The notes under the pieces: generated by a model
Told to the model about the DNA's origin: nothing
Databases searched by the model: none
The model's input: the letters and a program-made list of their open reading frames with translations, nothing else
Assembly: GCA_030599585.1 (NCBI GenBank)
Contig: JAUVNS010000015.1
Coordinates: forward strand, 1 to 64,000
Direction: 5' to 3'
DNA length: 64,000 nt
From: Promethearchaeota archaeon
GTDB taxonomy: Archaea > Asgardarchaeota > Lokiarchaeia > Sigyniarchaeales > SOKP01
Shown: positions 14,855 to 48,987 of the stretch, piece by piece
Numbering within the stretch: the first letter of the stretch is position 1
Layout of the letters: each line of letters starts with the position of its first letter
Program-made: the position numbers and the translations under genes

Positions 14855-16346
<1,492 letters not shown>

Positions 16347-33004: not shown

Positions 33005-34216
33005 ATGCCAAAATTATCCAAATTTGGAGAAGATTTTTTACTACTGGCACTCAGAATTGACAAACACATTAAAGGTTATGTCGATTTTTATTTTGGTCCA
33101 GAAAAACTCCGGCAAATTGTAGATCATGAGTCTCTAACAGCTCCAAACACATTGTTAAATGACTCTAACAATTTAATAAAACAACTGGGAGCTCAAGGTT
33201 ACAACAAAGAACGCGAATGGTATATCGAAAAGTTATTGGTCGCTATGAAAACCTCAATAGAAATTTTATTAGGTTCTGAAATTTCGATTAAAGACCAATT
33301 TACAAGACTTTATGATGTAGACCTACAACCCGCTAAAGAAGCTGATTTAGATAATTTAAAGGAAGAGTTTGAGAATGCGTACAAAGGATCTGGAAGTTTA
33401 GAAGAACGAATGAGTAAGTTAAGAGTACAGCGTAAGGTTCCTAAATCTGATGTTTTCGTTTTATTCAAAAAAGCGCTTAAAATTGTGAAAAGTCGAACTA
33501 AAGAATTGTTTGGTAATCTTTTACCCAAAAATGAATATATTATTATAGACTTAATAGGGGACAAAAACAGCGATAAAACAAAATGGTCTTATTACAACTG
33601 GTACTTGGGAAATTATATTTCCCGAATTGAAATTAATCCAAATTACAATGTGTATTGGAGCTCACTTTTATCCTCTGCCGCTCATGAGGGATATCCTGGG
33701 CATCATACGGAATTTGCTGTTAAAGAACAATGTTTATATCGAAAATTATATCAATTCGAACATTCCTTATTAATACTTCACTCACCCAAATTAATAATTT
33801 CTGAAGGAATTGGAAATTTAGCAATTTCTGTAATGTTTTCAGATATGGATGCTGCAGAAATTAGTTTAAGAGAATTTTGTCCAAATACATCCAAAACGGA
33901 TTCTTTTGATGTAGTGGCTTCACAAAACAGTGTAAGAAGAAAATTGTCTCTTTTTTGGTATAATCTTGCATACCGTGCGCTAATTGACGAATATAGTACC
34001 GAAGAACTAATCTGCTATGGAAAAAATTTTGAAGTTTTCAGTGAAGATACGATTCAAAATAACCTAAAAAGAATGATAGATCCTGTGTATTCAAAAAACG
34101 CTTTTTTATATGACCTTGGGACCAATCTCATTAGAAACAAGTATGGAATTGTTCCATCAGCTAAAAATTACCAAAATTTGCTTAAAACTGCGATATTACC
34201 CTCAAATTTAAAATAA
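33005..34216 (+). CDS. DUF885-like zincin metallopeptidase, copy A
   Basis: 'AHEGYPGHHTE' metal motif and downstream 'SEGIG'; no signal peptide; paralog of 47361..48575. Confidence 0.7.
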   Translation: MPKLSKFGEDFLLLALRIDKHIKGYVDFYFGPEKLRQIVDHESLTAPNTLLNDSNNLIKQLGAQGYNKEREWYIEKLLVAMKTSIEILLGSEISIKDQFTRLYDVDLQPAKEADLDNLKEEFENAYKGSGSLEERMSKLRVQRKVPKSDVFVLFKKALKIVKSRTKELFGNLLPKNEYIIIDLIGDKNSDKTKWSYYNWYLGNYISRIEINPNYNVYWSSLLSSAAHEGYPGHHTEFAVKEQCLYRKLYQFEHSLLILHSPKLIISEGIGNLAISVMFSDMDAAEISLREFCPNTSKTDSFDVVASQNSVRRKLSLFWYNLAYRALIDEYSTEELICYGKNFEVFSEDTIQNNLKRMIDPVYSKNAFLYDLGTNLIRNKYGIVPSAKNYQNLLKTAILPSNLK

Positions 34217-34467
34217 AAAATTAGATTTTTCCTAGCACATAATCTGGTGTTGGAGAAGTTAAAAACAATTCTTTAGATTTGAAAATTAAAAATTCAATTA
34301 ACTTTTTAGATTAGATTTCTTCAGCATAAAAATTTTATTAAAGAATCCCAAAATAACAAATTCGTAGTTTAAATAATCACTTTGGAATTAAATATAAAGT
34401 GAAAAAAAAGAGAAATGATTTCTAATTCAAAGTTAATATTTTTCAATTATCCAAAGGAGTGAGTAAT

Positions 34468-34497
34468 ATGCCTGGTGAGGACGGAATAGCACCTTAA
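34468..34497 (+). CDS. Micro-ORF MPGEDGIAP (9 aa)
   Basis: ATG CCT GGT GAG GAC GGA ATA GCA CCT TAA; SD-like AAGGAGTGAG upstream; one of four homologous micro-ORFs. Confidence 0.7.
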   Translation: MPGEDGIAP

Positions 34498-34502
34498 TTT
34501 TG

Positions 34503-34546
34503 TGCTTTTTATAAAAACACTCGAAGATTGTGTTTTTATAAGAGCA
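34503..34546 (+). terminator. Long hairpin followed by T-rich tract after the first micro-ORF
   Basis: TGCTTTTTATAAAAACAC ... GTGTTTTTATAAGAGCA inverted repeat; related hairpin at 48789..48830. Confidence 0.55.
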
Positions 34547-34651
34547 TCATATATTTTTTCTTCTTTTTTTAACTCAAAGATTAAATAATTTATATTAGAA
34601 ATAAAATTAAAATTTATCAGAAAAAGAAAATAATACAACTTAGTGATTAAA

Positions 34652-34681
34652 ATGCCTGGTCGAGATAGGTTTCATCCTTAA
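34652..34681 (+). CDS. Micro-ORF MPGRDRFHP (9 aa)
   Basis: ATG CCT GGT CGA GAT AGG TTT CAT CCT TAA; SD-like AGTGAT upstream, the same motif that precedes the thermosome gene. Confidence 0.7.
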   Translation: MPGRDRFHP

Positions 34682-34834
34682 TTTGATGTCGCTAATAAGA
34701 GTAGTATTTTTTTAGCTCGAAGTTTAAAGTGTTTATATCTAAAATGTAATAACACTTATCCTAATAAGAAAATATTACAATTAAGAGAATAAAATACAGC
34801 AATATACTCTACATGGATGAACTATAGACGAGTA

Positions 34835-47175: not shown

Positions 47176-47316
47176 CCTCCGAAAAGAACGTCTATAACTG
47201 TGTTACACGAGCTCGAGTCAGCAAAATTACGCATAACTCTAATCAGAGCAGTGGGTGATGCTACATTAAAATCAAAATCGTTAAATTCAGCAAAAACAAA
47301 TATTAATCAAGAGTAA
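47176..47316 (+). pseudogene. proC 3'-end fragment
   Basis: Translates PPKRTSITVLHELESAKLRITLIRAVGDATLKSKSLNSAKTNINQE*, against the proC C-terminus TPGGTTITAIHELESAKIRATLIRAVEAATIKSKSLNSAKANNNR*. Confidence 0.85.
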
Positions 47317-47360: not shown

Positions 47361-48575
47361 ATGGTAAAATTATCCAAGTTTGGAGAAGATTATTTACAAT
47401 TAGCATTCCGGATTGATAAGCACATTAATGGATATATAGATTTTTATATTGGTCCGGAAAAACTTAGGCATGTTATAAGTAATGAATCCCTAACAGCCCC
47501 AAAAAAATTATTGGATGATTACAAAGATTTGATAAAACAATTAGGATCTCAAGGGTTTAACAAGGAGCGCGAAATATATATAAAAAAAATGCTTATAGCA
47601 ATGAAAACATCTATCGAACTAATTATTGGTACAAAGATTCCTATAAAGGAACAGTTTTTAAAACTTTACGATGTTGCTCTTAAGCCCGTAGATGAGTCAG
47701 AATTTAAGAATTTAAAAGATGAATTTGATAAAGCTTATCCCGGTTTTGGAAGTCTAGAAGAACGAATGAAAAAATATAGAATAAGGCGAAAAGTTCCTGA
47801 GAAAAAAGTATTCGTATTTTTTAAGGAAGCACTTGATCTCGTTAGAAAGCGAACAAAAGAGTTATTTCTAGACATATTGCCAAAAGAAGAAAAAATAATT
47901 TTAGAGTTAGTTAATAACAACGAATCAGACGAAAAAATAAAATGGAATTGTTATAACTGGTATTTAGGCAATTGTACTAGCCGAATCGAGGTAAATCCAA
48001 CTTTTGGTATGTATTGGACGGCTTTTTTAATATATGCCTCTCATGAAGGTTATCCAGGGCATCATACTGAATTTGTCTTAAAGGAGCAAAAGTTATTTCG
48101 GGAACAAAATCAATTCGAACATTCTTTATTAATACTTCATTCACCTAAATTGATAATAACTGAAGGTATTGGGAATATAGCAATTTCCGTACTCTATTCA
48201 AATAAAGAATTAGCAGAAAAAGGCTTAAGTAATTTTTGTTCAGATCCCTCTAAAGATGATCCTCTTGAAGTATTGATAGCACAAAATAATATAAGAGGTA
48301 AAAATTCGCTTTTTTTGTATAATCTAGCTTATCGTGCTCTCATAGATAGATATAATAATGATGAGCTTCTTGATTATGGAACGAGCTTAGAAATTTTTAG
48401 TGAAGAGGAGATCAGAAATCAATTAAAAAGATTATCTAATCCAGTTTATTCTAAGAACGCTTTTATGTATGAACTTGGAAGCAATCTTATTAGGAATAAA
48501 TATGGCGGTGTTCCAAGCATTAAAAATTTTAAAAATTTGCTTATTAATCCAGTTTTGCCTTCTGACTTAATCTAA
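47361..48575 (+). CDS. DUF885-like zincin metallopeptidase, copy B
   Basis: 'SHEGYPGHHTE', 'TEGIG'; collinear with copy A over its full length. Confidence 0.7.
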   Translation: MVKLSKFGEDYLQLAFRIDKHINGYIDFYIGPEKLRHVISNESLTAPKKLLDDYKDLIKQLGSQGFNKEREIYIKKMLIAMKTSIELIIGTKIPIKEQFLKLYDVALKPVDESEFKNLKDEFDKAYPGFGSLEERMKKYRIRRKVPEKKVFVFFKEALDLVRKRTKELFLDILPKEEKIILELVNNNESDEKIKWNCYNWYLGNCTSRIEVNPTFGMYWTAFLIYASHEGYPGHHTEFVLKEQKLFREQNQFEHSLLILHSPKLIITEGIGNIAISVLYSNKELAEKGLSNFCSDPSKDDPLEVLIAQNNIRGKNSLFLYNLAYRALIDRYNNDELLDYGTSLEIFSEEEIRNQLKRLSNPVYSKNAFMYELGSNLIRNKYGGVPSIKNFKNLLINPVLPSDLI

Positions 48576-48752
48576 TAGATATTTTAGTGTTAATGCAATT
48601 CTTTAATCCCAAAATTTGTCAAAATTAAAATTTTATTGAAGTTTAAATAGGTTTTTGAAACTAATTTAATGAAGGAAGGAAGTAATTTGATTCATTCTTC
48701 ATATTTCAAAGTTTCGATTAAAAACATTTAAGTTCATATAAAGGTGGAAAAA

Positions 48753-48782
48753 ATGCCTGGTAGAGATAATATTCAACCCTAA
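48753..48782 (+). CDS. Micro-ORF MPGRDNIQP (9 aa)
   Basis: ATG CCT GGT AGA GAT AAT ATT CAA CCC TAA; SD AAGGTGG upstream. Confidence 0.7.
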   Translation: MPGRDNIQP

Positions 48783-48954: not shown

Positions 48955-48987
48955 ATGCCTGGTCAACCGGGAACATTTCCTAAATAA
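48955..48987 (+). CDS. Micro-ORF MPGQPGTFPK (10 aa)
   Basis: ATG CCT GGT CAA CCG GGA ACA TTT CCT AAA TAA; GTGTGA upstream. Confidence 0.65.
   Translation: MPGQPGTFPK

Follow-up and report, generated by a model that had tools for sequence, protein, structure and literature searches.

Proline-ended micropeptide genes beside DUF885-like peptidases and a giant putative regulator: an apparently undescribed system in Asgard archaea

What do reading frames of only nine codons behind a predicted peptidase gene encode, and which protein do they serve? The question arises from a stretch of 64,000 nucleotides (the window, contig C3) of a Promethearchaeota assembly of 4.85 Mb, with a GC content of 32.6% and an estimated contamination of 8.9%; close relatives of the peptidase also carry the label Promethearchaeota. 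A sequence-only reading had proposed that a DUF885-like metallopeptidase gene and its paralogue are each followed by two micro-ORFs, and we located all six elements as described, on the forward strand. Copy A of the peptidase (403 amino acids) occupies positions 33005–34216 and copy B (404 amino acids) positions 47361–48575, with a mutual identity of 63%. Behind copy A lie micro-ORF 1 (34468–34497, nine codons, MPGEDGIAP) and micro-ORF 2 (34652–34681, nine codons, MPGRDRFHP), and behind copy B lie micro-ORF 3 (48753–48782, nine codons, MPGRDNIQP) and micro-ORF 4 (48955–48987, ten codons, MPGQPGTFPK, with Lys after Pro9). Copy B is preceded by a relic of the 3′ end of proC (47185–47305, +) within a 203-nt block that is 75% identical to the DNA 5′ of copy A; because this relic was carried along, we regard the copy B locus as a segmental duplicate of the copy A locus. 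Elsewhere in the source genome, a third paralogue on contig C11 is followed by two micro-ORFs, one with a GTG start, and contig C40 carries one micro-ORF with no peptidase nearby.

ORFs 1 and 3 are complete units, each with its own TATA box and a 3′ hairpin followed by a U-tract. In unit 1, the TATA box (34368–34375, +) lies about 100 nt 5′ of the ATG, the Shine-Dalgarno site is at 34456–34462 (+), and the hairpin and U-tract span 34502–34570 (+; −17.5 kcal/mol, z −5.4); unit 3 has its TATA box at 48642–48649 (+), and its ORF is followed by a hairpin (z −2.4) and a U-tract. Hairpins at ORFs 2 and 4 were not significant (z 0.2 and 0.7), and ORF 2 has no clear TATA box or hairpin of its own. The further claim that all four ORFs are led by Shine-Dalgarno motifs matching the 16S rRNA tail held in part: the anti-Shine-Dalgarno tail is present (16334–16345, +) and the sites at ORFs 1 and 3 are strong, but those at ORFs 2 (34642–34646) and 4 are weak, consisting of GTGA only. 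Across genomes, the unit comprises a TATA box, a leader of about 100 nt, a Shine-Dalgarno site, the ORF and usually a 3′ hairpin with a U-tract, and the TATA box stands at a similar distance in most enzyme-linked units. Rfam covariance models run on eight loci matched rRNA and tRNA only.

The 30-nt pattern of the micro-ORFs gave 93 matches, a few of them chance hits with internal stops, in 17 of the 42 genomes of the genus, compared with six for the reversed control; outside the genus, its frequency was at control level. Contigs of unrecorded type from sequencing runs indicate that the locus is present in close relatives. Selection on the peptides, as earlier proposed, is borne out by their codons. 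Pro2, Gly3 and Pro9 are retained in every one of the 79 distinct ORFs while synonymous codons vary (three for Pro2, four for Gly3 and four for Pro9), start codons include TTG and GTG, and stops are avoided, with an internal stop in a single unit where shuffling predicted about 24. Position 6 is Gly, Asp or Asn in 64 of 79 ORFs, giving a turn-forming composition, and the middle codons are patterned yet weakly constrained (pN/pS 0.6–0.9). The stop follows Pro9 immediately in 76 of 79. When 91 units were anchored solely on the Shine-Dalgarno site, start-Pro-Gly and the U-tract, Pro-stop fell at codon 9 in 85, and every remaining Pro-stop offset found was a multiple of three. The rival case of a conserved DNA motif with frame-breaking spacing is thus excluded, and a DNA-binding or recombination motif is ruled out by the preserved frame together with synonymous change. 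As judged from these codons, the micro-ORFs are peptide-coding genes under coding selection. One micro-ORF (L170:4206, −) immediately follows a tRNA-like sequence of the same strand. Another, at L054:1053 (G004 C174), has an internal TGA and no enzyme at a site where related genomes have one; decay after enzyme loss is possible in this single case.

A dedicated link between enzyme and peptide had also been proposed, and we found micro-ORFs beside one enzyme clade only (support 94), in which they almost always lie less than 1 kb away, co-oriented or convergent. In subclade A, co-oriented ORFs were present in each of the 41 rows in which downstream DNA was available. Subclade B, whose enzymes have about 40% identity to those of A, has convergent ORFs of 8–11 codons whose peptides often begin M-P-H or otherwise and end in Val/Ile-Pro; in one row scored 'none' automatically (L164), the ORF is visible by eye. 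The opposite orientations in the two subclades indicate that the linkage survives inversion. The initial M-P-G of the window peptides is clade-specific, not universal; near-constant across clades is the terminal Pro only, the sole feature common to the short forms. A G-x5-P heptapeptide is therefore not a general product, and M-P-G was rejected as a recognition element. Arrays of two to three different peptides occur behind one enzyme, and the same peptide recurs behind different enzymes. The zincin is the only gene consistently linked in these cassettes. The enzyme is patchily distributed and multi-copy, reaching 10 enzyme matches and 15 or more peptides per genome. No linked micro-ORF was found at outgroup enzymes, nor at the enzyme loci of bacteria (about 80) and of other Asgard archaea (10), where the detector, which needs a U-tract, may miss GC-rich units. 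At L165, L172 and L161, enzymes and peptides of different subclades share a site, some tail-to-tail or in tandem, which suggests that cassettes are swapped at hot spots, one of them lying between a Trm5-like and an SDR gene.

Two long-branch enzyme copies in the source genome have no short ORFs and instead a convergent hydrophobic ORF of 37 codons. Such signal-peptide-like ORFs lie in this genome (G000) at C52:60082–60195 (−), C23:74759 (+) and C12:58733 (+); the 5′ end of the C12 ORF is damaged, C23 holds only a fragment of the enzyme, and the conserved Tyr is missing from one of the two full-length enzymes. The three contigs have FEN1-like and other genes in common and may represent a repeated element or contamination.

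The assignment of the enzyme to DUF885-like zincins was upheld by structure. The three best matches of the copy A model (pLDDT 96) are DUF885 structures (PDB 3IUK, 3O0Y and 3U24; Z 21–23.4, 352–370 residues aligned, rmsd 3.6–4.1 (VIA)), followed by M32, PepF (M3), MATCAP, ACE (M2) and Dcp at Z 11–14, the nearest characterised folds, of which the M32, M3 and M2 peptidases act on oligopeptides. With DUF885/PF05960 proteins the peptidase shares the fold (Z 21–23) and the HExxPGHH motif, which is invariant here; it differs in its length of about 400 rather than 550–600 residues, in its apparently cytoplasmic location and in Pfam scores of 21.1 and 13 bits, below the PF05960 gathering cut-off of 32.4. 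With M32, M3 (PepF, Dcp), ACE (M2) and MATCAP it shares the gluzincin core with the downstream Glu and Tyr, at a sequence identity of only about 10%. Residues H227, E228, H233, H234, E267 and Y369 (window numbering; +4 in the conservation alignment) show 100% conservation across A, B and D, the clades with linked peptides; because the catalytic residues are invariant, the enzyme is probably an active peptidase. Relatives occur across Asgard archaea and bacteria. A PDB sequence search, PADLOC and NCBIfam returned nothing useful for the peptidase; the lack of a PADLOC or relevant NCBIfam match also speaks against a type II toxin-antitoxin or known defence system, as does the layout, in which the peptide genes do not share an operon with the enzyme as an antitoxin does with its toxin, but have promoters of their own and in many cases a convergent orientation. 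The portions of the literature available to our search held no function or peptide partner for DUF885.

A second protein emerged from units that stand apart from any peptidase. These 'orphan' units consist of a 245-bp block that extends from the TATA box to the terminator and recurs at several sites, most commonly beside a gene for a protein of about 1200 residues (the giant) and an MFS gene. In three pairs (L040/L041, L044/L045 and L038/L039), each within one genome, the whole 245-bp unit has been copied to unrelated intergenic sites; retro-copying was rejected, since the duplicated blocks include the TATA box. The giant-type units L038–L049 have a conserved, compensated hairpin in their 5′ leader of about 105 nt, and their peptides, unlike the enzyme-linked class, commonly have Cys at position 4 or 5.

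The giant gene is present in 117 of the 134 genomes of the family, most of them without the enzyme, and a micro-ORF of varying orientation adjoins most giant copies. A detector of Gly/Pro-rich micro-ORFs was positive at 36 of 60 giant copies versus 7 of 310 shuffles, with about three of the 36 false and about seven more visible by eye. An MFS gene flanks 35 of 70 giant loci, and the giant-linked peptide motif follows the giant protein tree. By gene content, the giant is the more universal candidate partner of the peptides; since many genomes hold giant and peptide without an enzyme match, in assemblies that are incomplete, the enzyme would be accessory. With the query used, the giant was not found outside the family or elsewhere in the phylum, and a search for shorter relatives returned apparent contig-end fragments. 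A Bathyarchaeota cluster of 717-residue proteins aligns to giant residues 26–765, head domain included. Pfam and PDB sequence searches with the giant gave nothing useful. Its model (pLDDT 89) shows alpha/beta repeats and matches NirDL (the best, Z 13.2) and Lrp/AsnC regulators (between them 4CZC, 2IA0 and 2E7W) as well as AsnC-HTH clusters, and residues 14–204 weakly match M1 zincin domains (Z 6–7), the His-Glu of which is replaced by Arg-Glu. Among the matches listed in a whole-chain search, which over 1200 residues could miss a domain, none was to a TPR family. In some giant subclades the peptide gene encodes a signal-peptide-like precursor of 36–43 codons ending in a Gly-rich segment and Pro; together with the 37-codon hydrophobic ORFs, this suggests that the peptides may be exported. 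In another subclade (L275–L278, L281, L282 and L284), peptides end in Gly, Ala or Val rather than Pro, and the enzyme was not found in these genomes as far as they were searched.

We compared enzyme-linked with giant-linked peptides within genomes. In the source genome, ORF 1 of the window is identical to the giant-linked ORF of C40 at 8 of 9 residues, four of which are encoded by different codons, and three other genomes show the same enzyme-linked/giant-linked match, with 3–6 different codons at identical residues. Across 12 genomes, the best match over the three residues before the last Pro scored 114 within genomes against a permutation mean of 72 (p 0.0006), and exact within-genome matches numbered 3 against 0.75 (p 0.025); these p-values overstate the effect, as the metric was chosen post hoc and the 12 genomes are kin. 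Most enzyme-linked peptides differ from the giant-linked peptide of their own genome. Where they match, the combination of matching peptides, divergent codons and different flanks argues for selection rather than recent copying.

Collectively, these observations are consistent with a model, to which we assign a probability of about 0.5 on the genomic evidence, in which the peptides are signals sensed by the giant and the peptidase cassettes play an accessory part, cleaving the signals and contributing further variants. The micro-ORFs would be self-contained genes for short Gly/Pro-rich peptide ligands, and removal of Met1 would leave a peptide with Pro at both ends, resistant to general exopeptidases. 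The core system would comprise the giant as a cytoplasmic peptide-sensing regulator, built of a dead-zincin-like head and Lrp/AsnC-like units, together with the neighbouring peptide gene and a transporter of the MFS type. Every lineage would have its specific peptide variant, recognised chiefly by its last four residues. The DUF885-like enzyme would bind and cleave the peptides, clearing or trimming them, and its linked ORFs would encode the cell's own signal, exactly or nearly so, along with other variants, which may allow the cell to tune signalling, mimic it or jam it. The steps that we infer from genome assemblies, the evidence base throughout, are translation, removal of Met, export, binding, cleavage and regulation. 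Some points weigh against signalling: the best match of the giant model is an enzyme (NirDL) and its zincin match is middling; the agreement of peptide and protein trees would also be expected from shared descent alone; and the surplus of enzymes and peptides over the giant proteins, of which most genomes have one or two, fits a library of peptide products equally well.

Such a library, in which leaderless RiPP-like precursors are trimmed, cyclised or modified by the DUF885-like enzyme or the NirDL-like giant and exported by the MFS protein, would account for the many variable cores with fixed ends, the two to three peptides arrayed behind one enzyme, the stabilising 3′ hairpins and turn-forming composition, and the enzyme-like best fold match of the giant. 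To our knowledge, zincins form no acyl-enzyme, which counts against it, as do the persistence of peptides in genomes with no enzyme match and the lack of a terminal Pro in some giant-linked peptides. Small macrocycle cores typically end in Pro, but known head-to-tail cyclisation needs a cleavable C-terminal sequence (PMC10945851), and here the stop follows Pro directly in nearly all ORFs. The MSDIN family invoked in the sequence-only reading, cyanobactins and sponge PRMPs share with the present peptides hypervariable, short, Pro-ended cores in many gene copies (PMC10945851); those systems have a leader and a follower and a transpeptidating protease, whereas here both flanks are missing, the enzyme is a zincin and no linked serine-protease macrocyclase (POPB, PatG) was found. 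The analogy thus fails, cyclisation is less likely because leader and follower are lacking, and we consider the library unlikely. The RiPPs listed for archaea (PMC12144867) comprise the YcaO, radical-SAM, lanthipeptide and lassopeptide classes.

The peptides might instead inhibit the peptidase, as antidote or as a Rap-Phr-like switch, with the enzyme acting on a cellular protein and the Pro end plugging its active site. The layout resembles that of Rap-Phr in Bacillus: an enzyme-like gene and, behind it, a small peptide gene under a promoter of its own, in many paralogous cassettes. Unlike Rap, a TPR protein, the partner here is a zinc peptidase, and unlike the Sec-exported Phr, most of the peptides lack a signal sequence. 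The peptidase has a fold akin to those of ACE, Dcp and M32; peptides ending in X-Pro act as ACE inhibitors, and M32 enzymes are poor at releasing Pro; the patchy, multi-copy distribution and the enzyme-less site L054, with its interrupted micro-ORF, also fit. Outgroup enzymes without a linked peptide speak against inhibition, as do identical peptides behind different enzymes and different peptides behind one, and inhibition alone leaves the giant-linked copies and the within-genome match unexplained. We judge it quite unlikely as the whole explanation; it is compatible with signalling as a sub-case. Far less probable is that the unit acts as RNA or through its translation, as a small RNA or by ribosome stalling at Pro-stop, with the released peptide irrelevant. 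The 5′ and 3′ hairpins are conserved and ribosomes are known to stall at Pro-stop, as in TnaC, but the hairpins vary in sequence from one unit class to another, whereas the peptides agree despite codon differences; no Rfam match was obtained and signal-peptide-bearing versions exist. Many units converge on their partner or lie downstream of it, which makes attenuation of the partner impossible; the varying orientation likewise led us to reject an attenuator. A bolder form of the signalling model, to which we give somewhat less than even odds, is cell-cell signalling by peptides built without RRNPP parts, in which the dead-zincin/Lrp giant would be the receptor and duplicating cassettes of DUF885 peptidase and micropeptides would let a cell degrade, mature, mimic or jam several variants.

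Among known signalling systems, RopB/Rgg-SHP (RRNPP) offers the nearest likeness, with leaderless peptide genes of 8–10 amino acids divergent or convergent from a cognate cytoplasmic regulator, lineage-specific variants, and transporters and peptidases in the circuit (PMC13361665). As there, a small peptide gene adjoins a candidate receptor gene. RRNPP receptors bind through TPRs, in contrast to the dead-zincin-like head and Lrp/AsnC-like units of the giant model; their peptides are hydrophobic and ours Gly/Pro-rich, and here the transporter is an MFS protein and the peptidases carry their own peptide genes. By analogy, the system would be RRNPP-like in its working, closest to RopB-type leaderless peptides; we claim no membership, having seen no TPR. 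The giant resembles NirDL (siroheme decarboxylase) and Lrp/AsnC in its wHTH and ferredoxin-like units, and differs in fusing several of them in one 1200-residue chain behind a zincin-like domain, beside a peptide gene.

Our search found no paper on Asgard peptide signalling or on micro-peptide genes of this kind, in agreement with the earlier impression of novelty, and we conclude that the system is real, conserved and apparently undescribed. Its genes, which encode peptides of 8–13 residues in one family of Loki-type Asgard archaea, have been hidden by being too small for annotation. Under any of the three main readings, a widespread uncharacterised peptidase family gains candidate ligands that can be synthesised cheaply, so that its function becomes testable in vitro; if the cell-cell signalling reading is true, the peptides would also be the first substrate class for DUF885 proteins. 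If the signalling model holds, it would mean that the closest prokaryotic relatives of eukaryotes have independently built peptide communication.
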